DNA of 64,000 nt from a virus (lineage: Duplodnaviria > Caudoviricetes): the IMG/VR virus record IMGVR_UViG_3300023714_000001; one strand, given 5' to 3'. Both the position numbers and the translations under genes were made by a program. Below, piece by piece: positions 7,583-33,133 of this stretch. Every line of letters begins with the position of its first letter. Position 1 is the first letter of the stretch. The notes under the pieces are model-generated. The model ran no database searches. It was not told the origin of the DNA and was given only the letters and a program-made list of their open reading frames with translations.

Positions 7583-9595
7583 TTACGCGGCGAATTTTTT
7601 AACCATACCGTTCTTGTTGGCAATGATGTGTCTCCTCCTGCCGGGGAACTGTATGTACTCAAATCTCCAGTCTCCTTTTGCCTTATGGTTATAAGCTCTT
7701 TTATAAGTCTCTACCTTTAGTATCTTATGGATATGACATACTATATAGTTATTTAACTTAATCTGAGCTTTAACTGTTAAGAAGATACATGGACGAATAT
7801 CGCCGCGGACGGATACAGTCGGTTTGACTATGATATAGTCATCTTTGTATCCTGGGATAACGGTAAGCATTATGCCGCAGCCATATTTTAAGATGTCTGC
7901 TACCAGTGAATAATTTGGCTTACCTGTTTTGATGGTATAGAAACCATGTTTCTCTGCAGCCGCTTTCAGGGTTATACAGCCAGTGATATCCGGTTCACTG
8001 TTATTTGCAGGCAGATTATTATCCGTGGCAGTCAAGGCCGGCGTAGTATTTGCGTCTTTGATGGCTGTAGTAATATTGCGCCCGAGCTGGTTAATCATCT
8101 TACTGATGAGGTTTGTATTCTGGGCAGACTGTTCTACAGCTGTGCTGATTCTTGATACGAGCTCACCATTCTTATCTATGCGCTCAGTCATCATTTGTAC
8201 GAGCTGAGCCATAAGCTGCGTATTTTGTGCAGCAATCTGTGAGTTTTGCATAACCAGATGACCAAACTGCTTCATTGCCTCAGAGTTTTGTACAATGACC
8301 TGCTGTATGTCTGCCGCAACTTGCGGGGACATATACGCTCCGGTTTTGCGAATCTGTTTTAAGATTGCCTTAACCTGCTTCTTGAATTGCTTGGCGATTG
8401 GTTTGCGGGACTGCATTAAGACTTCATACAGACCGTCCTCGGTGAGGAACCATGACTCTTGCACTCCACCAGGGGTCGGAACAATCTTCCGAACCTTTTC
8501 TTCCTCCTCAACCGTATTCAACATTTTGTGTACGGAAGATCTGTCGTACTTAATCATCTCAGCCACGTCCTTGGCCAGGAACAATGGTTCTTCTGCCGTG
8601 CCATACACGGTAAAGTTTCTACCAAGCACTTCCTGCTCGGTTACAATCTGTAATTCTGCGCTCATAGGTTTAGCGCTCTCTCCCTCTGCCTCTCCTTCAG
8701 TTTTCTCTTGTGGAGTGATATTCTTTTCGGGCGGCAGCTCGTCCAGCCATTCCATATCGTCATTGCTGCCAACCACCGCACAACCGAACCAGTCGGGGAG
8801 CTTTTCTTGAACCTGTACTTTTGTATCCGGGATGACAATAGGTTTAGGAGACTCTCCCACTGCGGTGGAGTTCATGTCGTCAATCATCTTGTTGAGGCTT
8901 TCTCTAATATCCTTATCCATGCGCTCGCGATAAGTATCAGAATTAATAATCTTCTGAACGGCGTCCAGAGTCACAAGCCACTGCTTGCGTATCTTACTCT
9001 TGTTACCAAATGTCTCTATGATATTGACTTTTATCTTTTCATCGGCGCCGAGGTTTTTGGCCAGTCTGCTGCCGTCATATCCTCCCCACGAACGTTTTAC
9101 AAAATTTAGCCATGCGCATAAATCTGTGGCTTTGACCAGCAAATTTTGCATACCTGCGTCGTAGAGATGATAATTCTGTCCGCCGATTTGAAAATCTGTC
9201 AAAATTTTGACCCTTTCGCCGTGGGCGGTAAAAATTTGCTCCGGTTCTGCAGCGGGTAAATTCTGTGCCGGAATTTTGTCTTTGGATTTGCCTTTGCTAT
9301 TTTTACTCAACATCTTACACACCTCTGTCTTAATGTTGTCACGCTCTTTATCAAGAGACGCGTACGTCAGTATGGCCAGAAAACCTTTTTCTTCCATAAG
9401 GTAATGGCCTTCGGCTTTTTGGAATAATGCTCTTTCGTAAGGATCAAACTTACACAGAGCCTCAATAAACTCAAAGAGTTCTGCATGCTTGATTTTATAC
9501 AGCCTAGCTATCTCTTTGCTGGAGATAAGCTTTTTGTCTGCTACGTGGACGATGTCTATACTATCCATGACATAATCTTCCTTTCTGACTGTCAT
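7583..9595 (-). CDS. Multidomain phage antirepressor/regulator (Rha-like N-terminus plus BRO-N domains)
   Basis: ISSKEIARLYKIKH...YLMEEKGF (Rha-like); LFLAKDVAEMI...WFLTEDGLYEVLMQSRKPIAKQFKKQVKAILKQIRKTGAY (BRO-N). Confidence 0.85.
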   Translation of the reverse strand: MTVRKEDYVMDSIDIVHVADKKLISSKEIARLYKIKHAELFEFIEALCKFDPYERALFQKAEGHYLMEEKGFLAILTYASLDKERDNIKTEVCKMLSKNSKGKSKDKIPAQNLPAAEPEQIFTAHGERVKILTDFQIGGQNYHLYDAGMQNLLVKATDLCAWLNFVKRSWGGYDGSRLAKNLGADEKIKVNIIETFGNKSKIRKQWLVTLDAVQKIINSDTYRERMDKDIRESLNKMIDDMNSTAVGESPKPIVIPDTKVQVQEKLPDWFGCAVVGSNDDMEWLDELPPEKNITPQEKTEGEAEGESAKPMSAELQIVTEQEVLGRNFTVYGTAEEPLFLAKDVAEMIKYDRSSVHKMLNTVEEEEKVRKIVPTPGGVQESWFLTEDGLYEVLMQSRKPIAKQFKKQVKAILKQIRKTGAYMSPQVAADIQQVIVQNSEAMKQFGHLVMQNSQIAAQNTQLMAQLVQMMTERIDKNGELVSRISTAVEQSAQNTNLISKMINQLGRNITTAIKDANTTPALTATDNNLPANNSEPDITGCITLKAAAEKHGFYTIKTGKPNYSLVADILKYGCGIMLTVIPGYKDDYIIVKPTVSVRGDIRPCIFLTVKAQIKLNNYIVCHIHKILKVETYKRAYNHKAKGDWRFEYIQFPGRRRHIIANKNGMVKKFAA

Positions 9596-13140: not shown

Positions 13141-13337
13141 AAATAAAACACTCCTTTTTCTTATCCCGCTTTTTATCAGCATTTCGCTTCAGCGGGCTAC
13201 AAATGAACATTTCTGGACTACTGTCCGTTTTCTGGGGTTACGACGGTGAAAGGATAAAATCAGCTTAGCCCTGCTTACAGGAGACAGACGTAAGTTAGTT
13301 ATATAATCTGTATGTATGCGGGCGGAAAAATCCTCTC

Positions 13338-13370
13338 AAAATAAACAAGACAATCGTCTGCGAAGCAGAC
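13338..13370 (-). promoter_or_regulatory. Hairpin element copy 1
   Basis: + strand AAAATAAACAAGACAA-tc-GTCTGC-GAA-GCAGAC. Confidence 0.7.
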
Positions 13371-13509
13371 AAGAGTTCTGTTCTTGGAAAGGGGATTTTT
13401 ACTTTGGGATTCAAGCCTTTCATAGCGCGCCGAAAAATGTAGGAGGCAACAAACATTCTTCGACGTACTATGAGGGGCTCAAAGCTCCTCTTTTTGCCAA
13501 GGTGGGGGT

Positions 13510-13779
13510 TTATGCGGCGGCCTCTGCCTCTTTGTCCACAAGATGCAGTAAGTCACCATAGGTGGTATGGGCGGTGAAGAAAATGGTCTCGCCGGCCTCG
13601 CTTTTAAGGCGGGCGGCTGTTACGACGTTTCCTTCAAGGGTGTCCCTGCGGATAATGTCAAGTTCACTGCCGCCACTTACGATATGGAAGCTATCGCAAA
13701 GAGTGGTCAGCCTCTTGGCCGGCAAGAACCGGTAGTAGCTTTCAGGGAATATGCTTTCCAGGTCATTCTGAAATACCAT
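13510..13779 (-). CDS. Hypothetical protein
   Basis: AAAGGA RBS; ends -EAAA. Confidence 0.7.
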   Translation of the reverse strand: MVFQNDLESIFPESYYRFLPAKRLTTLCDSFHIVSGGSELDIIRRDTLEGNVVTAARLKSEAGETIFFTAHTTYGDLLHLVDKEAEAAA

Positions 13780-13864
13780 ATGTCATTTCCTTTCTTTGAT
13801 AAAAAAATAGGCCCCTGACGCATAGGGGAAGCCCATAGGGGGTTGGGGAGCGTCAGGAGCCCAT

Positions 13865-13894
13865 AAAAACAAAGCAATATCGCCCGAAGGGCGA
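13865..13894 (-). promoter_or_regulatory. Hairpin element copy 2
   Basis: + strand AAAAACAAAGCAA-ta-TCGCCC-GAA-GGGCGA. Confidence 0.6.
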
Positions 13895-13968
13895 AGTGGA
13901 ATTTGGACGAAGACGGCACTATCCAGACAAGAGGATAATTACTTGCGGCGTCTCCAGCCAAATATCGG

Positions 13969-14136
13969 TTATGCCGCTATTTTATACTCGGCATACTTTT
14001 CTTCCGCAAGGCGGTCATAGTCCCTGCGGGTCATCTTCCGCTTGGCGCGGTCACGAAGCATTCTTGCTTCGCGGCCTTCGCTGTAGATGCGGTTATGTTT
14101 ACGGATTTTTTCTGTGTTTGCATTTGTATTGAACAT
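13969..14136 (-). CDS. Small basic protein
   Basis: MFNTNANTEKIRK...YKIAA. Confidence 0.65.
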   Translation of the reverse strand: MFNTNANTEKIRKHNRIYSEGREARMLRDRAKRKMTRRDYDRLAEEKYAEYKIAA

Positions 14137-14155
14137 GATTAGCAACCTGCCTTTC

Positions 14156-14329
14156 TTAACGAATGTTTCTTGCGACGGCGTAGAATACAACCGCGCCGGT
14201 TGCAATCACGTCTACTGCCTGTTCTGCTACGGCCTTGGCTCCACCGACAAATTTCTGCCGGCAGGCCAAAACCTTCTCGTCACTTACTGCCTTGTCGTCT
14301 CCTAAATACCATTTGATAAATCTTTTCAT
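14156..14329 (-). CDS. Small hypothetical protein (57 aa, not in ORF track)
   Basis: AAGGGA RBS; MKRFIKWYLGDD...VARNIR. Confidence 0.6.
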   Translation of the reverse strand: MKRFIKWYLGDDKAVSDEKVLACRQKFVGGAKAVAEQAVDVIATGAVVFYAVARNIR

Positions 14330-14382
14330 ATATATTCAGTCCCTTCATTTTCTAAAAATCAACAGCAAGCGACGCAAGTTTT

Positions 14383-14790
14383 TTACGCGGCTTCTTTGTC
14401 GATTACCGGCTCGGTAGTAAAACTGCCGTACGGTTTAATGTGTTCGTCTTTGACCGGAGTGCGGTACTTCTTGCATACTGTATCAAGCTCACCCTCCAGG
14501 ATGTTTACCGTGCTCTTGCAGAGTTCGAACAGACTCTTGCCAACGCCGATTACGTTCTTGATGAGACCAGCGTTGCGGCTGAAGATACCCAGCACATCGC
14601 AAAAGAAATTGTCGTTGCTGGCAATGGTGACAATAGCCTCGCCATCTACATGGTTCACGCTGAAGCGAATGGGGCCATCTACTTCATACTGGTCTTCACG
14701 GGCAAAGGTCTGGCCGAAGGATTCCATCAGCTTCTTTACGGCGAGCATTTCTTTAGCGTTAAAATACATTTTCATTTCCATGGTGTTCAT
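14383..14790 (-). CDS. Hypothetical protein
   Basis: AAAGGAG RBS; ends -KEAA. Confidence 0.75.
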   Translation of the reverse strand: MNTMEMKMYFNAKEMLAVKKLMESFGQTFAREDQYEVDGPIRFSVNHVDGEAIVTIASNDNFFCDVLGIFSRNAGLIKNVIGVGKSLFELCKSTVNILEGELDTVCKKYRTPVKDEHIKPYGSFTTEPVIDKEAA

Positions 14791-14832
14791 TCTCCTTTTC
14801 CAAAACTACACAAATATTTTCGGGCAAAAAAA

Positions 14833-14982
14833 TTAAGCCGCTTTGCGGGCGGCTTTTTCTTCCAGCGTATTTGATTTTTGTGTCTTACGAGCTACAAGCT
14901 CCAAGGCTTTTCTGATTGCCTCAGCTCTTTCAAACCGTGTTCTCTGGTCGCCCCATTCAATCGAGATGTACGTCTTTTTCAT
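14833..14982 (-). CDS. Small basic protein (49 aa, not in ORF track)
   Basis: AAAGGAG RBS; MKKTYISIEWGDQ...KAARKAA. Confidence 0.65.
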   Translation of the reverse strand: MKKTYISIEWGDQRTRFERAEAIRKALELVARKTQKSNTLEEKAARKAA

Positions 14983-15023
14983 GATAAACGCTCCTTTCAC
15001 AATGCGTCCAAAAAAATCATCTC

Positions 15024-15056
15024 AAAATAAACAAGACAATATCGCCCGGAGGGCGA
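15024..15056 (-). promoter_or_regulatory. Hairpin element copy 3
   Basis: + strand AAAATAAACAAGACAA-ta-TCGCCC-GGA-GGGCGA. Confidence 0.7.
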
Positions 15057-15064
15057 AACGGCAG

Positions 15065-15220
15065 TCAGTGGGTATATCTCTTTCTGTTGTTGCGGGACTC
15101 TTTCTTGGGAAAGTAGGTTTCCTGAATACTTTCCCAAATGGCCGACAGAATTACCCAGCCAATGAGAATGACAAAATACAAGATACCTGCAAGAAAGAGT
15201 AAAACTATCCAGACTTCCAT
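15065..15220 (-). CDS. Small single-pass membrane protein (51 aa)
   Basis: AGGAGG RBS; MEVWIVLLFLAGILYFVILIGWVILSAIW plus basic tail. Confidence 0.6.
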   Translation of the reverse strand: MEVWIVLLFLAGILYFVILIGWVILSAIWESIQETYFPKKESRNNRKRYTH

Positions 15221-15238
15221 TTTTCAATTCCTCCTAAA

Positions 15239-15634
15239 TCACGATGCGCGGCGTATAATGGCCGGGCGATGGATACGGTCAAAGATTGCATTGACAGCCA
15301 TGCGGGCGGCCTGCTGAACACTGTCGCACCCTACAGCTTTGCCATTAGCAAATACCGTGAATGGTTTGCCCTGCGGCTTATCTTCCTCATCGAAGTCCGA
15401 CACAATCTTGCCGTCTTTCATCAGCCAGCTATAAGCTGTTTCTCCGGTAAGTTTGTCCCTGTACTTCGTAGTGCAACCATGTCGCGATACTATCTCCCAG
15501 CGGTCAAAGGAGCCGGGAAGATAATGATGGATAACCAGCTCGTAGGCAAGCGTAGCAAACTTGCCGTAGGTTACGTCCCAAACAGGAATTATCATAACAT
15601 TATTACGGACGATTTTCAATGCATACTTTTTCAT
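15239..15634 (-). CDS. Hypothetical protein
   Basis: AAAGGGAG RBS. Confidence 0.7.
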   Translation of the reverse strand: MKKYALKIVRNNVMIIPVWDVTYGKFATLAYELVIHHYLPGSFDRWEIVSRHGCTTKYRDKLTGETAYSWLMKDGKIVSDFDEEDKPQGKPFTVFANGKAVGCDSVQQAARMAVNAIFDRIHRPAIIRRAS

Positions 15635-15654
15635 GGCATATCTCCCTTTCTATT

Positions 15655-16086
15655 TTACGCTACACCATTTTTCTCTGAATAAATGGGCTCTCCACTCCAC
15701 GTTTTCCAAAGATATGGATATTCCTCGCGGATTCTGGACATAGGCAGACTGATATGCCGGAAGTCTTTTTGGCGAACTCCCTTGTAGGCATACCATACAG
15801 TATGGTTAATACCGAAGTATTCCAGTAACCTGCTCACCTTTTCTGCCGTGCAAAGCGACATGTCTACACTGGCATACTCGCGGAGCCAGCCACTAAATTC
15901 CCTTGCCTCAAAGCTTATGGCAAGACTGCCCACTTCGGTTTCTGTAATATCGTTTCCTGCAAACATGGGTGCGCTGCATTCACTCATCACCATATTACAT
16001 ACTTCCAAAGCAAGCTCGGTGGAGCAGAGCCCTGTCATCGAGCCACGCTCTTCATTGAGCTTATTTCTTAATTCGTCTTTTGTCAT
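15655..16086 (-). CDS. Hypothetical protein
   Basis: AAAGGAG RBS before MTKDEL at 16086; overlaps upstream stop (ATGA). Confidence 0.7.
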   Translation of the reverse strand: MTKDELRNKLNEERGSMTGLCSTELALEVCNMVMSECSAPMFAGNDITETEVGSLAISFEAREFSGWLREYASVDMSLCTAEKVSRLLEYFGINHTVWYAYKGVRQKDFRHISLPMSRIREEYPYLWKTWSGEPIYSEKNGVA

Positions 16087-16508
16087 TGTTTGTGCTCCTT
16101 TATTTTTTTGCACTGGCCGAGGGCCTTTTTTACCAGTTCTTCTTTGGTCACGCCTTCCTGATAAGGGAACACTCCCCTCCAACTGGCGGCGTAGTTTATA
16201 CAGTTCGGCTCTTCCTCGCGCTCCATAGGATGCACATCTTCTGCCGTTGCAAACACATATGGTCTTGAAAGCGAACCATCTTCTGCTTCCCAGATAGACA
16301 CGCAAATGTTTTGCGGCTGGAAGTTTTCACTTTCTGCAACCTCATGCTCTATAATGTGTAAACATGGTTTGTTTGACAGCACGGCATTAAAAGCATTTGC
16401 TTTTGCCACGAACACTTCTGCGTCCTTGCGGGCGGCAAATACCTGTTCGATATTCACTTCAGGAGTTCCGTCATAGTATATTTCAGATTCCACAACATAG
16501 ATAGTCAT
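16083..16508 (-). CDS. Hypothetical protein
   Basis: MTIYVVESE...VFAARKDAE, a common phage ORFan N-terminus. Confidence 0.7.
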   Translation of the reverse strand: MTIYVVESEIYYDGTPEVNIEQVFAARKDAEVFVAKANAFNAVLSNKPCLHIIEHEVAESENFQPQNICVSIWEAEDGSLSRPYVFATAEDVHPMEREEEPNCINYAASWRGVFPYQEGVTKEELVKKALGQCKKIKEHKQ

Positions 16509-16898
16509 AGCTACTCTTCCTTTCTGTTATAGAGAAAAACAAACCTTCTCAAAAGCATGATAAAAAGAAAACACCGGGCAAACCACAAAATCAGCTTGCC
16601 CGGAGAAGAAAAATATCATGACTTTGAGAAGGCCCCAAACAATATGTTTGGGAACCTCCCCTTTTGTTTTTTACTATAGGAGGGAGCAACCCCTTGCCTT
16701 AGGACTGCTCACACATGACACCAGAATATTATTGAGTTCTAATATCTGATATCATCTGTGAGAAGCCATAACGACCTCTCCTGGTTTTGTGCAAGTGTCG
16801 AGAATGCTGGAACATTCTTCCTGTGCACATAACCGTTCCATCTGTAAGTGTCGGAAGCATTCCAGTACTTCTCCTACACGTCAGGAACAATCTCTCAT

Positions 16899-16929
16899 AA
16901 AAAACAAGACAACCGTTCGCGGAGCGAAC
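16899..16929 (-). promoter_or_regulatory. Hairpin element copy 4
   Basis: + strand AAAAAACAAGACAA-cc-GTTCGC-GGA-GCGAAC. Confidence 0.7.
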
Positions 16930-16957
16930 AGCTGTCTTTAACTCAGAAACCTCGATG

Positions 16958-17236
16958 TCAATCCAACTGATATGCTGTGCCGTATCCATAGAAGACGATA
17001 TTGAACATACCGTCGAATAGGCTGGGGTCAATGCGATAACCTTCCCACGACTCCGTTATGTTATCCTGGAAAGACTCGGTCTTAAGGTCAAAACCGAAGT
17101 ATTGTTTTGCGTTGCTGTCGTTGGGGTCGATACAGGAGCTCCATTCATTGCCGCCATCTTCCTCCTCGACAATATATCCGATTTTATCAACGCCAATCTC
17201 TCTAATCTTCTTGTTAAGCTCTTTTACGTCAAACAT
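16958..17236 (-). CDS. Acidic hypothetical protein
   Basis: AGGAGGAG RBS. Confidence 0.7.
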   Translation of the reverse strand: MFDVKELNKKIREIGVDKIGYIVEEEDGGNEWSSCIDPNDSNAKQYFGFDLKTESFQDNITESWEGYRIDPSLFDGMFNIVFYGYGTAYQLD

Positions 17237-17272
17237 TTTAGTCTCCTCCTGCAGAAAACAAAAAACATATTC

Positions 17273-17308
17273 AAAATAAACAAGACAACCTATCGCCCGG
17301 AGGGCGAT
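17273..17308 (-). promoter_or_regulatory. Hairpin element copy 5
   Basis: + strand AAAATAAACAAGACAA-cct-ATCGCCC-GGA-GGGCGAT. Confidence 0.7.
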
Positions 17309-17366
17309 GAGGCACTAACTGGATGGCTCAATGTAAACGAGCGCAACAAAAGCCGCCCGCAATATC

Positions 17367-17858
17367 TTATGCGGCAACTTTCTCAATGGCACAATTCTTT
17401 ACCGCACCAGCGATGATGCGGCACTTGTTTGCAGGTGAAGATGCAAGATACTCGGCAAGGTCAAACTGGGTAACAACTTTGTACTTGCGCTTCGATGCCG
17501 TAGTAAATACAGCCCCGGCGCTCAGAACAGATTCACTATCCAGTTGGGGTTTCATTCCCTCCTCGGCCGAAGGCCCCGTTGCCACCTTGGGCACCTCGAC
17601 GACATCTGCCTTTACCATGGCCATGGCTACCTGCTGAGGGGTAACGCCCTTAACATTTTGGGCGCGCATTTTCCTTCCGTCTACCCACTCTGCTTTTAAC
17701 AGACTAAGTACACCAGAAGTAATACACCCTCTTATAGCTAAGGGCACTACAAATGCCTCAGAATTAGCCATGGCATTATGCAGCATTAATGCACACAATC
17801 CAAACAGAGCTTTTCTTTCATGTGCAGTCATTTTATTAAGTAACATATTTATACACAT
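17367..17858 (-). CDS. Hypothetical protein
   Basis: AAAGGGAG RBS; ends -KVAA. Confidence 0.7.
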   Translation of the reverse strand: MCINMLLNKMTAHERKALFGLCALMLHNAMANSEAFVVPLAIRGCITSGVLSLLKAEWVDGRKMRAQNVKGVTPQQVAMAMVKADVVEVPKVATGPSAEEGMKPQLDSESVLSAGAVFTTASKRKYKVVTQFDLAEYLASSPANKCRIIAGAVKNCAIEKVAA

Positions 17859-17932
17859 CTCCCTTTTTAAGCAATAAAAAATAAGCCCCAGCCATACAGA
17901 CTGGAGCTTACATGTTATTTTTAGTTATTCGT

Positions 17933-17963
17933 AAGAAACAAGACAATCGTCTGCGGAGCAGAC
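17933..17963 (-). promoter_or_regulatory. Hairpin element copy 6
   Basis: + strand AAGAAACAAGACAA-tc-GTCTGC-GGA-GCAGAC. Confidence 0.7.
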
Positions 17964-17997
17964 AATGGTAGTAGCCATATCACAACGGACGCATATT

Positions 17998-18222
17998 TTA
18001 CGCCGCGTAATCCATGACAATATTGCTGTCTATTGTCTTTTTAGCTTCTTCAATAAGAGCCTTTACCCGCTTCAACACAGGAGACTTATACCATACTTCT
18101 CCACACTGTGGGCATACTGCTCCAGGAACATTCTTTATAGATATCAGATAACCATTATAATGCGCATAGTATACAGTGAGCTTATCACCATTTATGCTGC
18201 CGCCGCAAGTTGCACAAGTCAT
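17998..18222 (-). CDS. YgiT-type zinc-finger protein (MqsA-like antitoxin)
   Basis: MTCATCGG...IKNVPGAVCPQCGEVWY, two CxxC pairs; GAGGAGG RBS. Confidence 0.85.
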   Translation of the reverse strand: MTCATCGGSINGDKLTVYYAHYNGYLISIKNVPGAVCPQCGEVWYKSPVLKRVKALIEEAKKTIDSNIVMDYAA

Positions 18223-18223
18223 G

Positions 18224-18547
18224 TTATTTCCTCCTCGTCTTAAAGTCATCTTCCCATTTGTCGCTGCTGGGAATATATGCCGTTATAAGCGATATTTCAT
18301 CATTGTCACCATCTAACCCAACAACCACATGGATAGGGCGCCCATTCATATGTATATAAAACATCAGACATGATGGCAGTGGCGTACTCCATGGACGTTC
18401 CTCTATAACTTCACCATACAATATGGTTTGTTCTACTTCGTCTATGGTTATATTTCTCTCGTCCAGTCGTTCACTGGCGTGGCGAGAAATCCTTACGCCA
18501 TATTGAAGACACAGCTTTCTTATTTTTGATATGTTCACAACTCTCAC
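18224..18547 (-). CDS. DUF4258-like putative toxin (RelE-like fold)
   Basis: ISRHASERLDERNI...GEVIEE...RPIHVV...LITAYIP..DKW, directly upstream of the YgiT finger. Confidence 0.8.
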   Translation of the reverse strand: MRVVNISKIRKLCLQYGVRISRHASERLDERNITIDEVEQTILYGEVIEERPWSTPLPSCLMFYIHMNGRPIHVVVGLDGDNDEISLITAYIPSSDKWEDDFKTRRK

Positions 18548-18555
18548 CTACTCTA

Positions 18556-18584
18556 ATTATAACAGAGAGAAACAAAGTTCTCAA
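18556..18584 (-). promoter_or_regulatory. SigmaA-type promoter for the TA pair
   Basis: Minus strand TTGAGA-17 nt-TATAAT. Confidence 0.65.
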
Positions 18585-18614
18585 GATAAACAAGACAATG
18601 CCTGCGAAGCAGGC
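18583..18614 (-). promoter_or_regulatory. Hairpin element copy 7
   Basis: + strand AAGATAAACAAGACAA-t-GCCTGC-GAA-GCAGGC. Confidence 0.7.
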
Positions 18615-18948
18615 TCGGAGGAAGACATGGTGTAACCCCATACTCCCTCCTGACCGGCTCGATGTGGCAGCGAAAAGACGCCACTTTCCGGCGGTCATCG
18701 CCGGATATCGAAGAAGACAAGTGTATCGAGCCCCTGCCGTATCTGGCGGCCAGGAGCCTGACCAGATACCGCGCATGAAGCCCGAAGGGCGGCTTCGGCG
18801 AGCGAGCAATGTCTCGGACACACGCCATCTCTTTTTGCCCGAAGACAAGATGCAGACCACACCTTTGTTGGTGCGATACCGTTGCGGGCGGCGTGGGACC
18901 GAGACGAGCGAAGCGAGCCGAAGGCCTTTATTCTTATGCTTTATTTTA

Positions 18949-18977
18949 TTGACTTTATCAACTTTATATGTTATACT
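18949..18977 (+). promoter_or_regulatory. SigmaA promoter
   Basis: TTGACT-17 nt-TATACT. Confidence 0.7.
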
Positions 18978-19011
18978 ATATGTAAATAAATGAGTTAGGA
19001 GTGGATGCACG

Positions 19012-19257
19012 ATGATATGTTTAACCGATTCTGAATACGAGGTAGTTAAGCCACTGGGACGGCGGCTTCATTCATTGGTTGCCCACTCCGGCTTAAATGC
19101 AGCAGACATTCGCAGTCAACGCCCAGATATTGTTGCAATGGAAAAGGACCTGAACAATATACTGGGGCCAATAACCGGGCGCAGCTACGATATCATCGAA
19201 TGGTTTACCTATACAACCCCTGGAAGAACCGAGCTGAATAAACTACTCAATTCTTAA
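19012..19257 (+). CDS. Hypothetical protein (counter-oriented moron)
   Basis: AGGAG RBS and own sigmaA promoter. Confidence 0.65.
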   Translation: MICLTDSEYEVVKPLGRRLHSLVAHSGLNAADIRSQRPDIVAMEKDLNNILGPITGRSYDIIEWFTYTTPGRTELNKLLNS

Positions 19258-19320
19258 TCAGGTTCCATGCTTCGTCACACATATCCTTAAATTACAATCA
19301 AGAGAAAAGAAGGGGTAGCT

Positions 19321-19578
19321 ATGAAGTTAACTGATGCACAGCGCGGGGCAATCACCTCAGCAGTAACTGATTATATTGATTATTGTGTAAATGAAGATAC
19401 GGATTCACTGGATATCAAGGACAGCAAACTGTCTTCATTGGCGAGCGGTCAACTCTACAACGTCCTTTGCTTGATATATAATACTGGTGCTCCTGATCAG
19501 ACTATCCAGAATAAGCTGGATAGTAAAGACTGGGGCGCTCCAGAGGAAGTAATTCAATTTATCGAGCTTACTTTATGA
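19321..19578 (+). CDS. Hypothetical protein (counter-oriented moron)
   Basis: AAGGGG RBS; abuts convergent gene. Confidence 0.65.
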   Translation: MKLTDAQRGAITSAVTDYIDYCVNEDTDSLDIKDSKLSSLASGQLYNVLCLIYNTGAPDQTIQNKLDSKDWGAPEEVIQFIELTL

Positions 19579-20115: not shown

Positions 20116-20133
20116 GTCTCATTCCTCCTATAC

Positions 20134-20190
20134 AAAAAACAAAAAAGACAGACTATTTTTGTGCCGTCTGTCAGGGCAAAAAATAATTAA
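20134..20190 (-). other. Intergenic H-type pseudoknot plus U-tract
   Basis: UGCC/GGCA stem; loop GACAGAC pairs with GUCUGUC. Confidence 0.55.
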
Positions 20191-22049: not shown

Positions 22050-23918
22050 TTACTTTTCCGCATCGACAACTACAACAATGCCATCATAGCCTTCAAGATG
22101 CTCAGCAACCGGCTTAACACCAGTAGCTTCTTTTACCATCTTGTCATAACCCTTCTCGAGTTTGATACGGAGTTCATTGGTGAGCCATTCCGGTACATCG
22201 CTGGTATAAATGGTCATCAGCTTCTCACTATTAAGCGTCATCTGCATATAGTCCGTGGTTACAACTTTCGTCGTAGCCTTAACTGTATGCGGGCGGAGCT
22301 GAATCTGCATACCAACGACGTCTTTTGTGGACACTTTAGCTGCGCGGGCAGCACAAGTATCGAGCATCGTGCCTTCGCCATCCATCTGGTCATCCTTGTC
22401 AAACAGGATGCAGAAAGACTTGAGCGTAAAGCCCTGGTCAGCACGCATACCCATACCGCAAGTATGAGAAGACAGGCGGGTGGCTGCATCAACAAGCATC
22501 GTACCCGTTACCTTCTCGCCCTCACGGATGGCAAATTCACCATGAGTGGCACTATAGAAGATTTTATTGAATTTCTCAATATTCTCTTCCGTGGATGCAT
22601 CGAAGAACATCATTGTGTCCTGACGCTTCTGAGAGGTAGAATAGATATTGCATCTATCTGCATCAAGCGTCATAATTATATCTTCCTGCTTAACCCACTC
22701 TTTCTTGATGGCCACAACTTCATGCTCCTGCATGCGGTATGCCGGATCGTATCCGCTTAAGAGAGCGTAGCAATTACGCAGTTCAACGAGCACAGATACG
22801 CCATCACCATAAACAGGGACATATTCATCCTTGTCCATATCGTGGGTAACACCAATATTCTTGGTGATGTAAATCTTGCCTCCTTCCTCTAATCCATCAA
22901 TCTTTCCAAGAAGGTAACGCAAGCAACGAGCTGCCTTCTCTTGGATTTTCTTGCCGGACGTCTCATCTGCCCGAACAAGATCAGAAAAGTCAACCGTAGC
23001 TACTTTATCCGTAGCAAGACGTTCACCAGAGAACTGGTTACGGCCAATAGAGTTACCAAGAACAACACCTTTCTTGGCATACGGAGCCGTGAATGCAGTC
23101 ACTGGAGCCGCCGTAATATCGACCACGCACTGGCAGCCAATATTATTGTTGGCCTGTACAAAAGTCAGGCTCTGCATCTGTACAGTAGCCATGCCTTTAT
23201 CAGCCTTCTTCATAAGGGTTCTACGGACTTTATTGTCCAGCTTGTGGCTGCCATGTTTCAGGATAGAGCCAAGCTGAGTGCGAAGACTCGGCTTTTCAGC
23301 AGCCTGAAGGATAACAGCACGATAGTTGCCTTCAACTACCTTCTTAGAAATCCCCTTACGGCCGAGAATCTCATCCAGTTCGGACAAATCCTTAATGTCC
23401 GTCTTGTGAGCGACAATCTTGGCAGCGTATACCGCACCAATGCCGTTAAGCTTCATGAGCTCAGAGACAACACCGCAATTAATGTTGATTTCCTTCTGTT
23501 CAGAAGCTGCCGCTACTTTGAGTACAATGCCGAGCTTCTTACGCTCGACAAGGCTCATAATACGGTCACGGGAGATACCGGCTGCCACCATATCGAGCGG
23601 CGTACGGAATTTCTTTGCCTGTTTATCTTTCCAATAACGGCAAAGACGATTCACCTCACGGTGCGTAAACACCGAGCACAGAACCATCGGGCTCTGTTCA
23701 TTGATATTAACCATTGGGCGGCCAGTACGAATGTACCAGTTATGGCTGAGAACCTTCACGGATTCCCAGGAAATACCAATGTTTGCCAGTGCTTTGAACG
23801 TAGTAGCACTTACACCACGTTCACTGCAGAACGCAAAGATTTTCTCAGCGTCCTTATGGCAAATACCTGCCAGTTCCAGTTCAGAAACGGATGCAAACAG
23901 TAAATTTTCTCTAGTCAT
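22050..23918 (-). CDS. YonO/RdRP-like two-barrel RNA polymerase, N-terminal half (DPBB-B) with three ComEA-like HhH repeats
   Basis: GAGGAGG RBS at MTRENLL; ININCGVVSELMKLNGIGAVYAAKIV (HhH); YSTSQKRQDTMMFF, AATRLSS, DQMDGEGTM, QIQLRPHTVKA parallel RdRP-family SSSQLR..FF, ARLGQ, SDG.G, FQIR...KG. Confidence 0.7.
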   Translation of the reverse strand: MTRENLLFASVSELELAGICHKDAEKIFAFCSERGVSATTFKALANIGISWESVKVLSHNWYIRTGRPMVNINEQSPMVLCSVFTHREVNRLCRYWKDKQAKKFRTPLDMVAAGISRDRIMSLVERKKLGIVLKVAAASEQKEININCGVVSELMKLNGIGAVYAAKIVAHKTDIKDLSELDEILGRKGISKKVVEGNYRAVILQAAEKPSLRTQLGSILKHGSHKLDNKVRRTLMKKADKGMATVQMQSLTFVQANNNIGCQCVVDITAAPVTAFTAPYAKKGVVLGNSIGRNQFSGERLATDKVATVDFSDLVRADETSGKKIQEKAARCLRYLLGKIDGLEEGGKIYITKNIGVTHDMDKDEYVPVYGDGVSVLVELRNCYALLSGYDPAYRMQEHEVVAIKKEWVKQEDIIMTLDADRCNIYSTSQKRQDTMMFFDASTEENIEKFNKIFYSATHGEFAIREGEKVTGTMLVDAATRLSSHTCGMGMRADQGFTLKSFCILFDKDDQMDGEGTMLDTCAARAAKVSTKDVVGMQIQLRPHTVKATTKVVTTDYMQMTLNSEKLMTIYTSDVPEWLTNELRIKLEKGYDKMVKEATGVKPVAEHLEGYDGIVVVVDAEK

Positions 23919-23956
23919 GATAAAATCCTCCTCGGGCTCGACGGCCCTTTTCTCTA

Positions 23957-24012
23957 AAAAAACAAAATTTGACAGACTATTTATCGAGCGCCGCCTGTCA
24001 GGGCGCAGAAAA
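23957..24012 (-). other. Intergenic H-type pseudoknot plus U-tract
   Basis: GCGCC/GGCGC stem; loop UGACAGGC pairs with GUCUGUCA (8 bp). Confidence 0.6.
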
Positions 24013-27000
24013 TTAAAAGTCGATATCAACATCGATGGTTTCCGTGCCATCAAAGATAAGAGCAGAGGATTCCTTAACGGATTCTTCCGGCAGAGCATCA
24101 TATTCTGCATTCTTCTGTTCCACTTCTGTCAGCACAACAACGGCACGATTGCAATTGCTGTCTGCATAAACAACGGAAACTGCACCGTTCAAACCTTCAT
24201 AGAAAGAGCGAACAGTAGCATCGTAGCTGTACTGATCACGATTCTTACGGACGTATGTATCTACATCCATATCAATCGTCAGAGCCTGGCTACGAACAGC
24301 AGCCTCCTTATTGTAATGCTTGCCACCCTTGCTGCCCTTTACATAAAGGCTGCCAAGAACTTCAGTACCTTCTCTCATGCCAAGGCGGGTATACTTACCG
24401 TCCTTAACATTTGAAAGAAGAATACGATGACCAACTTTAGAAGACATGGCATCAACGATAGCTTTGTTAATAGCAACTTGCTCGTCATTAATAATCCACT
24501 GTTCTTCTGCGGTTTCACCATCCCATTCCGGATTCGGCATCCAAACAGATTTAAGGTCAAGCTCAAATGCTACCTGGGTACGATCCACTTCGGGGATGCT
24601 GATAAAGTCCGTCATTGGGCGGACAATTGCCGGGGAGTCATCACGCATAGCAATCTGATACATGCCATCCAGAACATTTAAAGACACATAAAGGTCTTCA
24701 ATTTTCTTCATTTTGGCTGTATAGACTTCGCCTTCTTTTACGATAATGTTCTGCCCCTCAGTCAGAGACTTCAGAGCTTCTACATTATTGTAACGAGCAT
24801 TAATGAACTCCACGGCTTCATTATTGTCACTCATCTGAATAGCAGCATAAGCCGTCTCCTCTTTGAGAAGCTTGCTCATATTGCTGCCTGCAGAAGTCGT
24901 GATGTCTTCGCCTCCTGCAAGATAACCAACGAGGTCGTCAGGAGAGACCTTGCTGTTATCACGAGCCACCATCCAACGAATGGTATTGGAGATAGCGTCG
25001 AAAGCATCGTCATACTTCTCGTGCAGAGCTTTGCGGATTGCATCACTCTTAGAGTTGCTGACGTCGCCATACTCATCGGCATTTGCGGCAAGCATTGCTT
25101 TGCGGTCTTCACGATAGACTGTATTGATTGCGCCACCCATGCTGATTGCTACCTGCAGGCGGTTTTCAATACGCTGGTCTGCAATGTGCATGATGGCTAC
25201 GTCGTAAGCATTTTCACGACGAGCCTTATACTCTGCAGAATTAACTGCTGCTTTGTAGCGGGCAATTAATTCATTGAGCTTTTCCATGGACTTTTCAATT
25301 GCATACCGGCGATAGCTGGCGAAGAAGTCGTTGAACACAACAACCTTACGATCGTTCTGCCCCTTTCCTTCTGCCGGCCAGAAAAGCTGAATTGGTTCTT
25401 CAGCCATTACACCGCGGAAGCCTTCACGGCTGATTTCATTGCCGTTCATGTCAAGGAGAATAACTTTTTCGTCCTTACGGAGCAGGTCATCTTCCTTGAG
25501 TTCTGTTTTAACATTAGCTTCCGGGTCTTTATGGAATGCTGCCCAGTCGATAACGAAACGCGCACCGAACTTCAGCGGCGTAACCGTCATCGTTGCCTTA
25601 AGAATGGCTACAAAGTCCGTATAAACCTTGTAGAACTTCTTTTCAGCATCTATAGTGCATTCCTGAGTGTGACGAATAAGAACGTCAAAGTCCTTGATGA
25701 TTTCGAGTAGCGTATTCCACTGCTCTTCTGTTGTACCTTCAAAGCGAGTCATATGAACCGCTTTCTCAAATGCATGATAGGCATCAAGAGTTTCGCCGTT
25801 CTCATAGGTCTTTGGAGCCGTGCTTGCGGTTTCGCGGCCGTATTCATCTTCGCCCCAAGTAAGCGGGGTATGATACTTGCCGTCGCCAGCATCAGCTTCC
25901 GTACCTGCTTCCCATACTGTAGAGAAGCAGGAGATATAGAGTGCTTTTACCTCATCACTCCAATCGATAGCACAAAGCCCCTGAATAAGGACACGGCCAG
26001 CGTTAGTCACAGGACCAACCTTCTCATTATGATTCTGGTTGATCATGTGGAAATTGGTGGAGTACATGCCACCGTCAATTTCGTAACGCTCGCCCTTTTC
26101 TTCAGGCTTAGTCGGTACGATATCAACAGCCAGCGGTTTAAAACCATACCCCATAAGGAACCAGGGGATATCCTTCTGGCCTGCACGATGCAGAATTACA
26201 GAAGTCTTATCCCCATCACGGTCCGAACCGGCCAGCACGCTGCCGATAGCTGCCAGGTCAGCAGGCATCTCGATAATACCTTCCTTGATATTGGCATACT
26301 GTTCAGCAGCGCAGATGGCCTCCTCTTCCGTGAGGTAGCCACGCTCAACGAGGTCCATCAGAGCTTCCTCGATTTCCTCGTCATCCATAAAATGAACGAG
26401 TACGGTTTCGCGGGTGCCAACAGACGGATACTTCATGAGCGCACCGTAACGATCTTCTCTGGCGGCATTGATACCGTCAAAGAAGCGAGTAGCACGAGGA
26501 TCGACAACATTCATGACGTTGCCATTGATACCCGTAACGCCAACTTTCAGTGCTTCTTCAACACCGAAACGGCTCTTAATGAGCTCATACACCGGGTCAA
26601 TCGAAATCATGCTTGTGTGGCCGTCAAGATGATAACGGTCGAGCTGAACATGATTGGAGAGCGTACGGGCGATGTCGTTTGTGGCACCCTTAATGAGCTG
26701 CGGCCACATGTTGAGCGCACCGCTGTTCATACCCATTAAGAGCGAAGAAGTATAACCAGCATCAACTTCTTCAAAGCCACGATAACCATCGCGGCAACGG
26801 CCATCGAGGTCAGACACCTCGTCCACCGTATGGTCGATAGCAGTTTTGATGACTTCATCCAGGTCGCTAAGCACCTGTTCTGCATCGGCGCCATTTTTAA
26901 TAGCGTCGTTTGCGCAGCGGAACAACTTCATCCACATCTGTGCGGATGAGTACACGTTCTTATCTTCATCCTCTGCATGAGGAATCATAAGAACATTCAT

Positions 27001-27228
27001 TCCGGTTGGTACAGTGACATCAAAGATGTCTTTCCAGAAATTACGGTCACCCACAATTTCCGGCAGTTCAATACCGTTAGCAATGGCTTTAAAAGCATTG
27101 CCTTTTACGTTAGCTGCTGCATTAACATGTATAGCTTTTTCTGCAGCTTTTGCTTTTTCTTCGGCATTGATTTTCTCAACAATAGCCTTACGATCAACGG
27201 TTACGTTTGCGATAGTCTGAGTCTTCAT
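24013..27228 (-). CDS. YonO/RdRP-like two-barrel RNA polymerase, catalytic C-terminal half (DPBB-A)
   Basis: AAAGGAGG RBS at MKTQTI; KYPS, LAGSDRDGD (DxDGD), VGPVTNA, QECTIDAEKK parallel RdRP-family KxP, SGSDLDGD, LG.I.N, AVD..K. Confidence 0.78.
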   Translation of the reverse strand: MKTQTIANVTVDRKAIVEKINAEEKAKAAEKAIHVNAAANVKGNAFKAIANGIELPEIVGDRNFWKDIFDVTVPTGMNVLMIPHAEDEDKNVYSSAQMWMKLFRCANDAIKNGADAEQVLSDLDEVIKTAIDHTVDEVSDLDGRCRDGYRGFEEVDAGYTSSLLMGMNSGALNMWPQLIKGATNDIARTLSNHVQLDRYHLDGHTSMISIDPVYELIKSRFGVEEALKVGVTGINGNVMNVVDPRATRFFDGINAAREDRYGALMKYPSVGTRETVLVHFMDDEEIEEALMDLVERGYLTEEEAICAAEQYANIKEGIIEMPADLAAIGSVLAGSDRDGDKTSVILHRAGQKDIPWFLMGYGFKPLAVDIVPTKPEEKGERYEIDGGMYSTNFHMINQNHNEKVGPVTNAGRVLIQGLCAIDWSDEVKALYISCFSTVWEAGTEADAGDGKYHTPLTWGEDEYGRETASTAPKTYENGETLDAYHAFEKAVHMTRFEGTTEEQWNTLLEIIKDFDVLIRHTQECTIDAEKKFYKVYTDFVAILKATMTVTPLKFGARFVIDWAAFHKDPEANVKTELKEDDLLRKDEKVILLDMNGNEISREGFRGVMAEEPIQLFWPAEGKGQNDRKVVVFNDFFASYRRYAIEKSMEKLNELIARYKAAVNSAEYKARRENAYDVAIMHIADQRIENRLQVAISMGGAINTVYREDRKAMLAANADEYGDVSNSKSDAIRKALHEKYDDAFDAISNTIRWMVARDNSKVSPDDLVGYLAGGEDITTSAGSNMSKLLKEETAYAAIQMSDNNEAVEFINARYNNVEALKSLTEGQNIIVKEGEVYTAKMKKIEDLYVSLNVLDGMYQIAMRDDSPAIVRPMTDFISIPEVDRTQVAFELDLKSVWMPNPEWDGETAEEQWIINDEQVAINKAIVDAMSSKVGHRILLSNVKDGKYTRLGMREGTEVLGSLYVKGSKGGKHYNKEAAVRSQALTIDMDVDTYVRKNRDQYSYDATVRSFYEGLNGAVSVVYADSNCNRAVVVLTEVEQKNAEYDALPEESVKESSALIFDGTETIDVDIDF

Positions 27229-27266
27229 GATATTTTTCCTCCTTTGTGGCTCGACGGCCACTCTGC

Positions 27267-27319
27267 AAAAAAAACAAAAATTGCCCAGTTTAAGGTCGTG
27301 TGGCAGGACCAAAACAAAA
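27267..27319 (-). other. Intergenic pseudoknot-like element plus U-tract
   Basis: GGUC/GACC stem; loop UGCC(A)CA pairs with UGGGCA. Confidence 0.45.
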
Positions 27320-27850
27320 TTAAAACGGCAAATCTCCCCATTCCGTGATGGGGTTGAGGTCAAATACTTCGGCCTCTATATTCTCATCTATATCTCTGTG
27401 GGAAACATAGGAGTCTTCCCCCATACCGTAGCAGTTATAAGCGAACTCCTTAACCTTATCTTTGGGATAAGTTTCCAGGAGCTTTACCAGGAGCATTGTG
27501 GAAATAACGTGTTCCTCCACTAAGAGGTCAGCGCCATCAACAAAGTCTGCAGCGCCAATTTCCTCCTGCATACGGCCAAACAGCTTTAGTGCCGCATCAC
27601 CCTCTGCACGCTCGGCTTCCTCCAGAAGCCCAACGGTGTTGTTGAACTCCAGAGTAACATCCTCGTCCGGCTCATCGCCGAACGGGTTGGTGAAGCAGGC
27701 CTTATCCTTGCCTACCACCAAGAACCTGCCCTTTTCATAGGCGCCCTTCCCGCCAAACATAAGTGCTCCATTCGGAAGTACTTCATAATGAGCAAATGCT
27801 TCACCAAGCAGGATAACAACAGCGGCCTTAATAAGATTCAGTTTCTTCAT
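27320..27850 (-). CDS. Acidic hypothetical protein ending -DLPF
   Basis: AAGGAG RBS; SSB-like C-terminal tip. Confidence 0.75.
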   Translation of the reverse strand: MKKLNLIKAAVVILLGEAFAHYEVLPNGALMFGGKGAYEKGRFLVVGKDKACFTNPFGDEPDEDVTLEFNNTVGLLEEAERAEGDAALKLFGRMQEEIGAADFVDGADLLVEEHVISTMLLVKLLETYPKDKVKEFAYNCYGMGEDSYVSHRDIDENIEAEVFDLNPITEWGDLPF

Positions 27851-31138: not shown

Positions 31139-33133
31139 TTGAAAATCAGAGTAAAACAATTGGCGCATAAATTCGTACAAGCTGGCGCCAAATCTCACCC
31201 CTTCACTCGCCACTATTACCGCGATAACAGCGATAAAAACATTTTGGCGAAGTACAGGGAAAAACATAATAACACGGAAATCTACGAAAATTTGTACACA
31301 ATGACCGTGGAAGATGACGCCAGCAAAGATGCGAAATCCATCTGGCAGGCAAATAAAGAACAGGCCGTTCTTACCGGAGACTTTGTTGTTGACCTAGACC
31401 TGCACGGCGCCGGCGACAAACCGGAAGCCTACGATGCTGTTCGCAATGATACCATTGGCGTTGTAAAACGTTTATGTCAGCTACTTCACATCACTGAAAA
31501 CCAGATGAAGATATACTGGAGCGGCGGCAAGGGATTCCATGTTGTAGTCCCGTATGCAGGATTGCTATCAGCAAAGAATCTAAACAAAGGATATCGCAGA
31601 CTGGCACAATGGCTTAATCGCTACTACAAGACGATTGATCTGACATTGTACGATGAACAGCGAGTCTGTCGCATTCCCAACTCTATCCACGGTAAGACAG
31701 GGATGTATTGCGTTCGTGTATCCTGGGAACAGCTTCAGAGTATGGATCTGATACAAATGATGCAATGGGCCTTTAACCCCCGTCCAGATGAGGACGTCTT
31801 CTTAAACGAAAGTCACGTAAGAAGTGTGTTTGGTTCAAATTTAGAACGGCTCTCAGGCCTTATACTACGCGGGTTGAAGGGTAGTAGGAAAACTAAAAAG
31901 AAACAACCCCGTACAATAACCGTAGAAGAGAGAAGGGGTGTTTTTCAGAGTATTTTCAGATTCAAACAACCTGGTGTGATTTCCGAGTCTGCCGTAAAAA
32001 TGTCGATTCCCCAAGCAATCAAATATGTTAAGAGCTCTATTGACATGGAAGAACTTACTGGACTGCGCGGACAATTTTGTGACATTTTTCACGAAGAACA
32101 AACACCCTCTTCTTGTTGGCTACGCCCTAACGCAAACCATCGTAATTGGATTTACAAATGCAGTTCAGCGTCTGCAGAGCTTACAGTTGATTCTATTGGT
32201 TTCACAATGTGTTGCTTGCACTGCACCACTATAGAAGCCCTTGAACATCTCTGCTCTAAAGCTAATATCAAGCTTGTGCACAACGAACATGGTAAAGACA
32301 TTCGGGAATTTATACGAACGAATAAGTTAGCTTACAAGAACCTTAACAGGATAAAAGGTGCCCATAACTTAATCGGTAGGGTTCTTAAAGGTGCTTACGA
32401 CGAATGTTGTGCTGACGTTCAATACATGGCTGAGCGCTATAACATGAATAAACATGGCGACGATATCTATGGCTCTGTTAGTTCCCGTTATTTATCCAAG
32501 AGACTAGGGAATAAGAACGATCATTCGTCTTCGTGTAAGAAACTAATTTTACTGGCCAGTTTAGGTCTTGTTAAACGTTTTACGGATGAAGATCTCCCTT
32601 TCTACGATACTTTGAGAAGGATGCCTTTTTATAAAAAATGTATGAGAGAACATTATGGTTGCACGATTCAGTTTTACAAATTAGCTGACCTTAGCAATAA
32701 AGAAGTACGCAGGGTTATCCGAGATAGAATCAGAGCATGGGTAGACAAAGGATCGCCCATTAAGAATATCAATCGTCAGGTTATCTCTGATGTATTTGGG
32801 GAAGAAATTGCTTCAGATGTCTATGCCAAGCACGATGCTTTAATGGCTAAGCGCGCATCCGTAGCAAGTAAAGTCGCAGAGGAAACTGAGGTAATCGCTA
32901 TCGACAATATTGAAGAACAATGGCGCTTGGAAGAGTTTGAATGGCTTAGAAAAGAAATGCGTGAAAATGCCAGACGACCAATGTTTGATGATTGGGTATT
33001 TGTACCTGCTACTGTAGCAGCGCCTCCCAAGACAAAAGCCGTCAAAGCTCCGAAATCGCGTACAGGTGCCGCGAAGCGCACTGCCTCATATACTTATATA
33101 CCTCAGAGCTTACAAGGGTGTCAGGCAGCCTAA
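31139..33133 (+). CDS. AEP-family primase/replication protein with Zn-finger-like and putative wHTH regions
   Basis: VVDLD, WSGGKGFHV, IDLTLYDEQRVCRIPNS (AEP motifs); FCDIFHEEQTPS...YKC (CHC2-like); upstream TTGACA-18-TAAAAT at 31050-31079. Confidence 0.8.
   Translation: MKIRVKQLAHKFVQAGAKSHPFTRHYYRDNSDKNILAKYREKHNNTEIYENLYTMTVEDDASKDAKSIWQANKEQAVLTGDFVVDLDLHGAGDKPEAYDAVRNDTIGVVKRLCQLLHITENQMKIYWSGGKGFHVVVPYAGLLSAKNLNKGYRRLAQWLNRYYKTIDLTLYDEQRVCRIPNSIHGKTGMYCVRVSWEQLQSMDLIQMMQWAFNPRPDEDVFLNESHVRSVFGSNLERLSGLILRGLKGSRKTKKKQPRTITVEERRGVFQSIFRFKQPGVISESAVKMSIPQAIKYVKSSIDMEELTGLRGQFCDIFHEEQTPSSCWLRPNANHRNWIYKCSSASAELTVDSIGFTMCCLHCTTIEALEHLCSKANIKLVHNEHGKDIREFIRTNKLAYKNLNRIKGAHNLIGRVLKGAYDECCADVQYMAERYNMNKHGDDIYGSVSSRYLSKRLGNKNDHSSSCKKLILLASLGLVKRFTDEDLPFYDTLRRMPFYKKCMREHYGCTIQFYKLADLSNKEVRRVIRDRIRAWVDKGSPIKNINRQVISDVFGEEIASDVYAKHDALMAKRASVASKVAEETEVIAIDNIEEQWRLEEFEWLRKEMRENARRPMFDDWVFVPATVAAPPKTKAVKAPKSRTGAAKRTASYTYIPQSLQGCQAA

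Follow-up and report, generated by a model that had tools for sequence, protein, structure and literature searches.

The N4 promoter hairpin consists of a stem of 5–7 base pairs (bp), a closing C-G pair, and a GGA or GAA loop, and it contains a GC-rich heptamer (PMC4496689, PMC13037366). The loop bases −10G, −11G, and −12A include a sheared G:A pair, and the protein contacts the purine at −11 (PMC4496689). According to a review, the N4 promoter hairpin has the heptamer GCGGAGC with GGA or GAA loops, and GCGRAGC and CCGRAGG are the two closing combinations that give stable DNA mini-hairpins (PMC13037366). This study analyzed intergenic elements of comparable anatomy in a 64,000-nucleotide (nt) stretch of phage DNA (Duplodnaviria; Caudoviricetes; IMG/VR virus record IMGVR_UViG_3300023714_000001), hereafter the window. 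A sequence-only reading had noted seven such elements between positions 13338 and 18614, each comprising a conserved box and a C-GNA-G triloop hairpin, and had proposed that they are N4-like promoters for a neighboring split RNA polymerase. The comparative evidence favors a promoter over a plain terminator for the box, and we assign a probability of about 0.6 to the reading that the box is the promoter core for a phage-encoded polymerase.

The motif of phage AR9 is reportedly a short linear sequence on the template strand. Similar to the elements, the phage-polymerase signals of AR9, P23-45, and phi14:2 are short phage-specific motifs that involve no host sigma factor, and the strand recognized in AR9 is the template strand (PMC5449584, PMC9209446; bioRxiv 10.1101/2022.12.01.518664). 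The texts searched on P23-45 and the crAss-like phage phi14:2 do not mention a hairpin, whereas the elements described here have one; no common motif was found among the early transcripts of phi14:2, which carries the crAss-like gp66 (bioRxiv 10.1101/2020.03.07.982082). In T4-type phages, promoter-early stem-loops (PeSLs) are small stem-loop-plus-promoter cassettes situated, as are the elements, between ORFan-like genes in a plastic region (PMC2839356, PMC4122927).

The virus record of which the window is a part comprises 211,158 bp (43.7% G+C) and encodes a portal, a major head protein, and a tail sheath, which identifies a contractile-tailed jumbo phage. For comparison, we used a close relative, L001, which is represented by three near-identical IMG/VR records and has a polymerase 81% identical to that of the window phage, and the distant phages L005, L006, L008–L010, and L292, which carry a fused polymerase at 31–34% identity. 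Among four additional polymerase relatives, one contig was long enough to cover the downstream region. Similarity searches with the window region and the polymerase returned no match in a phage database. When IMG/VR was scanned for the box plus loop or for the extended box, the three known relatives were the only matches apart from chance single ones, and a metagenome pattern scan returned at least 120 loci, with the box plus hairpin in none among the matches listed. No known RNA family or tRNA was found in the window at gathering scores, and the matches that appeared were at chance level (E 0.28–0.48).

Anatomy and conservation of the elements

The 11-nt box AAACAAGACAA was present in six exact copies on the + strand, at 13343, 15029, 16902, 17278, 17936, and 18588; a seventh copy, at 13867, deviates from it at two positions. 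Approximately 0.03 exact copies are expected per window; the six observed were all on one strand and spanned 5.3 kb. A perfect 6–7-bp stem with a GAA or GGA loop and a closing C-G pair was located 1–3 nt past each box. All seven elements reported earlier were recovered, with the earlier start coordinates lying 2–5 nt ahead of each box, and the stem lengths and sequences, the C-GAA-G and C-GGA-G loops, and the 1–3-nt spacing were as described. The box was likewise present, but its extent had been drawn too short: conservation continues beyond the 11-mer to approximately 20 nt, and in gene sense the element reads as the hairpin, 1–3 nt, and then TTGTCTTGTTTATTTTGAGAG.

An eighth full copy was identified outside the window at genome position 13602 (stem GCCCGC, loop GAA). 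The distance from the loop center to the box was 10 nt in six copies and 9 and 12 nt in the remaining two. A genome-wide triloop census revealed eight GC-rich C-GRA-G hairpins with a stem of at least 6 bp, and each of the eight adjoined a box, with order and orientation unchanged throughout; no such hairpin lacking the box or facing the opposite way was found in the genome. The hairpin occupied the + strand, which is the template strand of the minus-strand genes, in all eight copies, and the heptamers were GCGRAGC or CCGRAGG. One hairpin-less box was present in the genome, on the opposite strand at 9284 (9274–9290; L015 1275–1290). In gene sense, this copy lies approximately 22 nt ahead of the ribosome-binding site (RBS) of a hydrophobic open reading frame (ORF) of 32 amino acids (aa), with a probable divergent ORF upstream.

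The relative L001 contributed six further copies, five in the syntenic region and the ortholog of the eighth. Across the 14 copies of the two phages, 100% of the stem cells were Watson-Crick paired, and both sides had changed at five of the six pairs; shuffled partners and slid registers fell far short of this result. One ortholog pair exhibited a compensatory change (TCGCCC/GGGCGA versus TCGCGC/GCGCGA). Loop bases 1 and 3 and the closing C-G pair were invariant in all 14 copies, and the loop center differed in three of the six ortholog pairs, exclusively by exchange of A and G. These comparisons indicate that the elements are a single composite unit under selection, with a covarying stem, a fixed loop, and a fixed spacing.

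All seven elements of the window belong to the minus strand. Element 1 (13333–13370) consists of an extended box at 13333–13353 and a mini-hairpin at 13356–13370 with the stem GTCTGC and the + strand loop GAA; the loop of its L001 ortholog, r_a, is GGA. Element 2 (13867–13894) has the degenerate box, with its two mismatches, at 13867–13877 and a hairpin at 13880–13894 (TCGCCC, GAA); a strong terminator-like hairpin follows on its downstream side at 13809–13860, and the ortholog, r_b, has an intact box and is also followed by a terminator hairpin. Element 3 (15019–15056; box 15029–15039, hairpin 15042–15056, TCGCCC, GGA) starts 8 nt past the upstream stop codon, with 47 nt between the end of its box and the next ATG, and its ortholog, r_c, carries the compensatory stem and a GAA loop. 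Element 4 spans 16892–16929 (box 16902–16912; hairpin 16915–16929, GTTCGC, GGA). Element 5 (17268–17308) has the box at 17278–17288 and a 7-bp hairpin at 17292–17308 (ATCGCCC, GGA), 42 nt from the ATG at 17236. Element 6 (17926–17963; box 17936–17946, hairpin 17949–17963, GTCTGC, GGA) is followed by a canonical terminator at 17881–17911, and element 7 (18578–18614; box 18588–18598, hairpin 18600–18614, GCCTGC, GAA) stands at the head of the small-gene cluster.

The proposed likeness to the N4 promoters held at the anatomical level, down to the GCGGAGC/GCGAAGC heptamer. As in the early promoters P1–P3 read by the virion polymerase gp50 of coliphage N4 (Schitoviridae), the hairpin is on the template strand, with a stem in the 5–7-bp range, a GGA or GAA loop, C-G closure, a GC-rich heptamer, and a purine at the loop center; the stem sequence is free if paired, and the template is A-rich between the hairpin and the presumed start. 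In contrast to N4, the elements occur in a contractile-tailed jumbo phage and carry an extra conserved box of approximately 20 nt after the hairpin. N4 has three promoters at the genome end, whereas the eight candidate signals described here are distributed through a gene cluster. The N4 hairpin extrudes from supercoiled DNA, with transcription beginning approximately 11 nt from the loop center. The position equivalent to N4 −8G is G in five of the eight copies and C in the three TCGCCC copies.

The box motif in phages with a fused polymerase

In the fused-polymerase phages, a gene-sense motif, CTAATNGTTTT...TGAGG, which in L292 takes the form ACTAACCGTTT...TGAG, recurs at 10–16 copies per locus through the cluster of small genes that follows the polymerase. 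The 3' half of this motif is the 3' half of the extended box of the window. A weight matrix derived exclusively from the 20 nt at the 3' end of the relatives' motif placed elements 4, 5, 1, 7, and 3 at ranks 2, 3, 4, 5, and 7 among 422,000 genome positions. Across these genomes, the box core accompanied the polymerase; the GNA mini-hairpin was not found in the fused-polymerase phages.

No gene on the same strand precedes several copies of the relatives' motif, which occupy divergent gaps (L006 15495; L005 15902–16359), and one copy is located in a 49-nt gap with no hairpin (L292 18324–18372). Typically, a stable leader hairpin starts at once from the GAGG of the motif, approximately 100 nt ahead of the ATG. 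The divergent gaps, the hairpin-free gap, and the leader hairpin together point to a promoter with a start near GAG rather than to a terminator. Some copies lie within long inverted repeats and start right at the stop codon of the preceding gene, and the motif may have a second, terminator-like or processing use. The leader hairpin is itself a conserved structured leader, with copies including L005 19625–19670, L006 18406–18450, and L008 9170–9215; its outer stem covaries, and its inner part keeps CTCGG..CTGAC..AACG.

Position relative to genes and host promoters

The elements are all situated between minus-strand genes with strong Shine-Dalgarno sites, and every copy was upstream of a minus-strand gene, in agreement with the earlier description. 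The hairpin begins 8–139 nt past the upstream stop codon in seven of the eight copies, and the box ends 42–50 nt from the next start codon in four. Box orientation tracks gene orientation, including that of the hairpin-less copy on the other strand. Element 7 occupies a divergent gap with approximately 960 nt upstream devoid of a same-strand gene, behind two opposite-strand genes and a conserved GC-rich stretch of 330 nt.

Element 7 also overlaps a sigma-A-type promoter (TTGAGA-17-TATAAT, 18556–18584), the −35 of which is the end of the box. As noted previously, a good sigma-A −10 was found at this copy only. This −10 belongs to an inserted toxin-antitoxin-like cassette. Host sigma-A promoters were rejected as a general explanation; the −10 is confined to element 7, and the ortholog of this element in the relative has none.

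Promoter and rival readings

The proposed promoter function is favored by the comparative evidence for the box, and the enzyme that reads it may be either the split polymerase, as suggested earlier, or a 3080-aa candidate virion polymerase encoded outside the window. The box of approximately 20 nt would serve as the promoter core for one of these enzymes, and the comparative and positional evidence suggests that transcription would begin within the box or immediately past it and proceed into the minus-strand gene, typically 42–50 nt downstream. That the whole element is a promoter to whose signal the hairpin belongs is the leading reading, with about even odds. An N4-like reading of the hairpin on the template DNA strand is a more tentative proposal, for which the odds are somewhat unfavorable; judged by its anatomy, the + strand C-GRA-G mini-hairpin could extrude and then be recognized by protein in the way known from N4. 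We consider it similarly tentative that a two-barrel phage polymerase of the QDE-1/YonO/crAss-like lineage finds its promoters by means of a GNA mini-hairpin extruded from the template strand, in convergence with a mechanism known only from the unrelated T7-like virion polymerase of N4, and that this hairpin replaced the linear upstream half of an older motif still used by the distant relatives. In RNA arriving from upstream, the weak hairpin before the U-rich stretch could damp read-through, which would insulate the cassettes. A role of the hairpin in DNA is favored by the rules for the G-R-A loop and the closing pairs and by a loop-to-box distance that hardly varies, and a role in RNA by its placement behind stop codons and the G-U stem extensions in elements 1, 4, and 6; a dual promoter/attenuator role fits best.

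Several observations weigh against a hairpin promoter of this type. The N4 gp50 is a T7-like enzyme, whereas the polymerases encoded here are of the unrelated two-barrel type. YonO of SPbeta, the promoter of which is undefined (PMC5467207), is the one two-barrel phage polymerase with a mapped start (the yonK–yonN region); no C-GNA-G hairpin of at least 5 bp was found in the 50 kb around yonO–yonK, which argues against a family-wide rule. The distant fused-polymerase relatives keep the box core without the GNA mini-hairpin, and the hairpin may consequently be an add-on rather than a recognition element. A terminator scan listed all seven copies of the window, and seven of the eight elements present a hairpin and a U-rich tail behind a stop codon. 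The stems of elements 1, 4, and 6 can be extended only through G-U pairs, that is, in the RNA sense. Finally, elements 2 and 6 and the ortholog of element 2 point straight into a strong terminator hairpin, which is awkward for a promoter.

The alternative raised by the sequence-only reading, that the elements are terminators, lost ground but was retained as a rival. According to this explanation, the RNA hairpin and the U-rich box stop or pause the phage polymerase sequence-specifically, or the host enzyme weakly, and downstream genes are expressed by read-through. Sequence-specific termination signals exist for phage T7 RNA polymerase (class II signal). The elements resemble intrinsic terminators in their GC-rich hairpin, U-rich stretch, and location behind stop codons; the scan matches and the RNA-sense G-U extensions are in line with this resemblance, as are the many motif copies in distant relatives that start at the stop codon of the upstream gene. 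However, the RNA hairpins of the elements had energies of −5.9 to −10 kcal/mol, with U at 1–3 of the first 4 and 3–5 of the first 8 tail positions, whereas seven canonical terminators in the same 10 kb ranged from −10 to −24 kcal/mol, with 6–7 U in the first 8 tail bases. The canonical terminators reported directly after copies 2 (13809–13860) and 6 (17881–17911) were confirmed as long terminator-like hairpins with a good U-run between the box and the RBS, and the ortholog of copy 2 has the same arrangement with a different hairpin sequence. Moreover, element 7, the hairpin-less copy, and several copies in the relatives have no same-strand gene upstream and hence nothing to terminate, and one copy in L292 has no hairpin at all. 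The loop and tail of the elements are invariant, yet intrinsic termination needs neither a strict loop nor conservation over approximately 20 nt. A terminator-only function would also place approximately 15 terminators and one recognizable promoter in a 9-kb cluster. On balance, we consider termination alone unlikely.

A further rival holds that the elements act in polycistronic early mRNA, where a protein of the phage or the host would bind or cleave them to control processing, stability, or translation. The conservation of the hairpin and its flanks between genes, in constant orientation relative to these genes, agrees with this explanation. To our knowledge, however, the RNA loop UUC/UCC belongs to no recognized stable or protein-binding loop class. 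The G-R-A loop and the GC/CC closing constraint fit the rules for DNA mini-hairpins (PMC13037366), and the divergent-gap copies of the relatives' motif point to initiation, making an RNA-level site improbable. Marginally less probable still are single-stranded DNA signals for priming or recombination rather than transcription, such as primase entry sites resembling G4 oric and RSF1010 ssiA: priming sites of phages and plasmids include CCGAAGG and GCGAAGC mini-hairpins (PMC13037366), a primase-like protein is encoded at 31139–33133, and cassette indels terminate at the elements. Against this reading, the elements sit strictly between genes, keep a set distance to the start codon, and are oriented with the genes; they share their box core with the gene-oriented motif repeated 10–16 times per locus in the relatives, and repeats recombine without a dedicated signal.

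Elements as cassette boundaries

The suggestion that gene content varies at the element boundaries was confirmed by comparison with L001, relative to which the window has two extra segments, both bounded by elements. The cassette between elements 7 and 6 (17998–18538, minus strand) encodes a DUF4258 protein (104 aa) and an MqsA/YokU-like protein (74 aa), and that between elements 5 and 4 (16958–17236, minus strand) contains a 92-aa gene; both are absent from the relative. The single element of the relative corresponds to the upstream side of element 5 joined to the downstream side of element 4, which places the crossover inside the box. The copies can act as crossover points because they have 35–40 nearly identical bases in common. 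The sequence comparison indicates that the elements delimit gene cassettes and serve as crossover points for gene gain and loss. The DUF4258 and MqsA/YokU-like pair (17998–18584) resembles a toxin-antitoxin module and has its own extended −10 promoter.

This behavior parallels that of the PeSLs, which exhibit element-bounded indels between close relatives and crossovers within the elements (PMC2839356, PMC4122927). PeSL promoters differ in being of the sigma-70 type, with G/C-run stems at variable positions, whereas the elements have −10/−35 sequences only at element 7 and carry an unvarying GNA triloop whose distance from the box is likewise constant.

The polymerase genes

Two minus-strand genes beside the elements were assigned to the polymerase. 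The gene at 24013–27228 encodes a 1071-aa protein (KYP ... GSDRDGD), identified by a model fold match as the catalytic half of a two-barrel RNA polymerase, and the gene at 22050–23918 encodes the second half, a 622-aa protein with HhH repeats that matches the N-terminal part of fused relatives. The 1071-aa protein had no sequence match in Pfam, PHROG, or PDB. Its GSDRDGD motif was invariant across 27 homologs, and its AlphaFold model (pLDDT 76.6) matched RDR2 (Z 17.9), QDE-1 (Z 14.0), and crAss-like gp66 (Z 8.1). Homologs at 31–34% identity span 1200–2100 aa. Residues 170–642 of one fused relative aligned to the 622-aa protein and residues 650–1510 to the 1071-aa protein, indicating that the enzyme is split, with the two genes in swapped order. 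The split polymerase recognized earlier beside the elements was thus borne out by the fold Z scores, the DxDGD site, and the fused-relative alignments, and the model supports the conclusion that the neighboring genes encode a split two-barrel RNA polymerase of the QDE-1/RDR/YonO/crAss gp66 type.

A second candidate enzyme is encoded among the giant ORFs of the structural region, outside the window (L012; genome 114004–123246). This 3080-aa ORF (RQP ... NGDKDGD) contains an NGDKDGD motif resembling the catalytic barrel of two-barrel polymerases, and its product may be a virion RNA polymerase. A comparison of three giant ORFs with PHROG and Pfam revealed no polymerase family, and the 3080-aa ORF had no family match. 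A search for a T7-like polymerase (PF00940) found no match in the genome, and the positive controls were equally silent.

Two repeats accompany the polymerase genes. An identical short hairpin, GGCCGTCGAGCC, lies immediately before the RBS of both genes (23935–23946 and 27248–27259) and may be an operator shared by the two, translational or transcriptional. A second repeat, CCCTGACAGRCGGC ... GTCTGTC followed by a long T-run and AGAG, occurs at 20128–20190 and 23952–24017 and, in a weaker form, at 27248–27322, that is, upstream of a 178-aa gene and of both polymerase genes; it is also present at L292 14040–14100. Its preservation in a lineage with a polymerase only approximately 32% identical indicates that this repeat is sequence-specific, and it could act as a terminator or represent a second class of promoter.

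Other features near the elements

After element 4, a nearly noncoding stretch of 330 nt extends to a terminator at 16574–16603 and includes a doubtful 43-aa ORF and a direct repeat at approximately 16790–16870. The interval 16574–16898 may form a small RNA unit running from element 4 to this terminator.

The region upstream of element 7 (18615–18950) comprises 330 nt that are GC-rich, highly structured, and apparently noncoding. It lies inside a 709-nt aligned block (19286–18581) that is 92% identical to the relative and more conserved than the adjacent genes. Its arms, GGCTCGCTTCGCTC and GCTCGCTCGCCGRAGCC, reappear in distant relatives, where they head the small-gene cluster (L005 15660–15810; L292 approximately 16760–16900). 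This region may represent a noncoding RNA, an origin, or a packaging signal. At 18949–19578, a near-consensus sigma-A promoter with a TG (TTGACT-17-TATACT) precedes two small + strand genes of 81 and 85 aa, which run counter to the entire left arm.

Implications

Whether or not the hairpin is read on the template strand, the elements show, for a jumbo phage that is not of the T4 group, how repeated control cassettes drive the gain and loss of genes. Very little is known of the promoters used by small two-barrel phage polymerases, single-chain or split, and we found no hairpin promoter described for any two-barrel polymerase. This locus offers a short, defined, and testable candidate signal together with a polymerase amenable to expression from two genes. 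It also provides an evolutionary series leading from the linear motif of the fused-polymerase relatives to the hairpin-plus-box arrangement described here. If the hairpin is indeed read on the template strand, structure-specific promoter recognition would have evolved twice, in unrelated polymerase folds.

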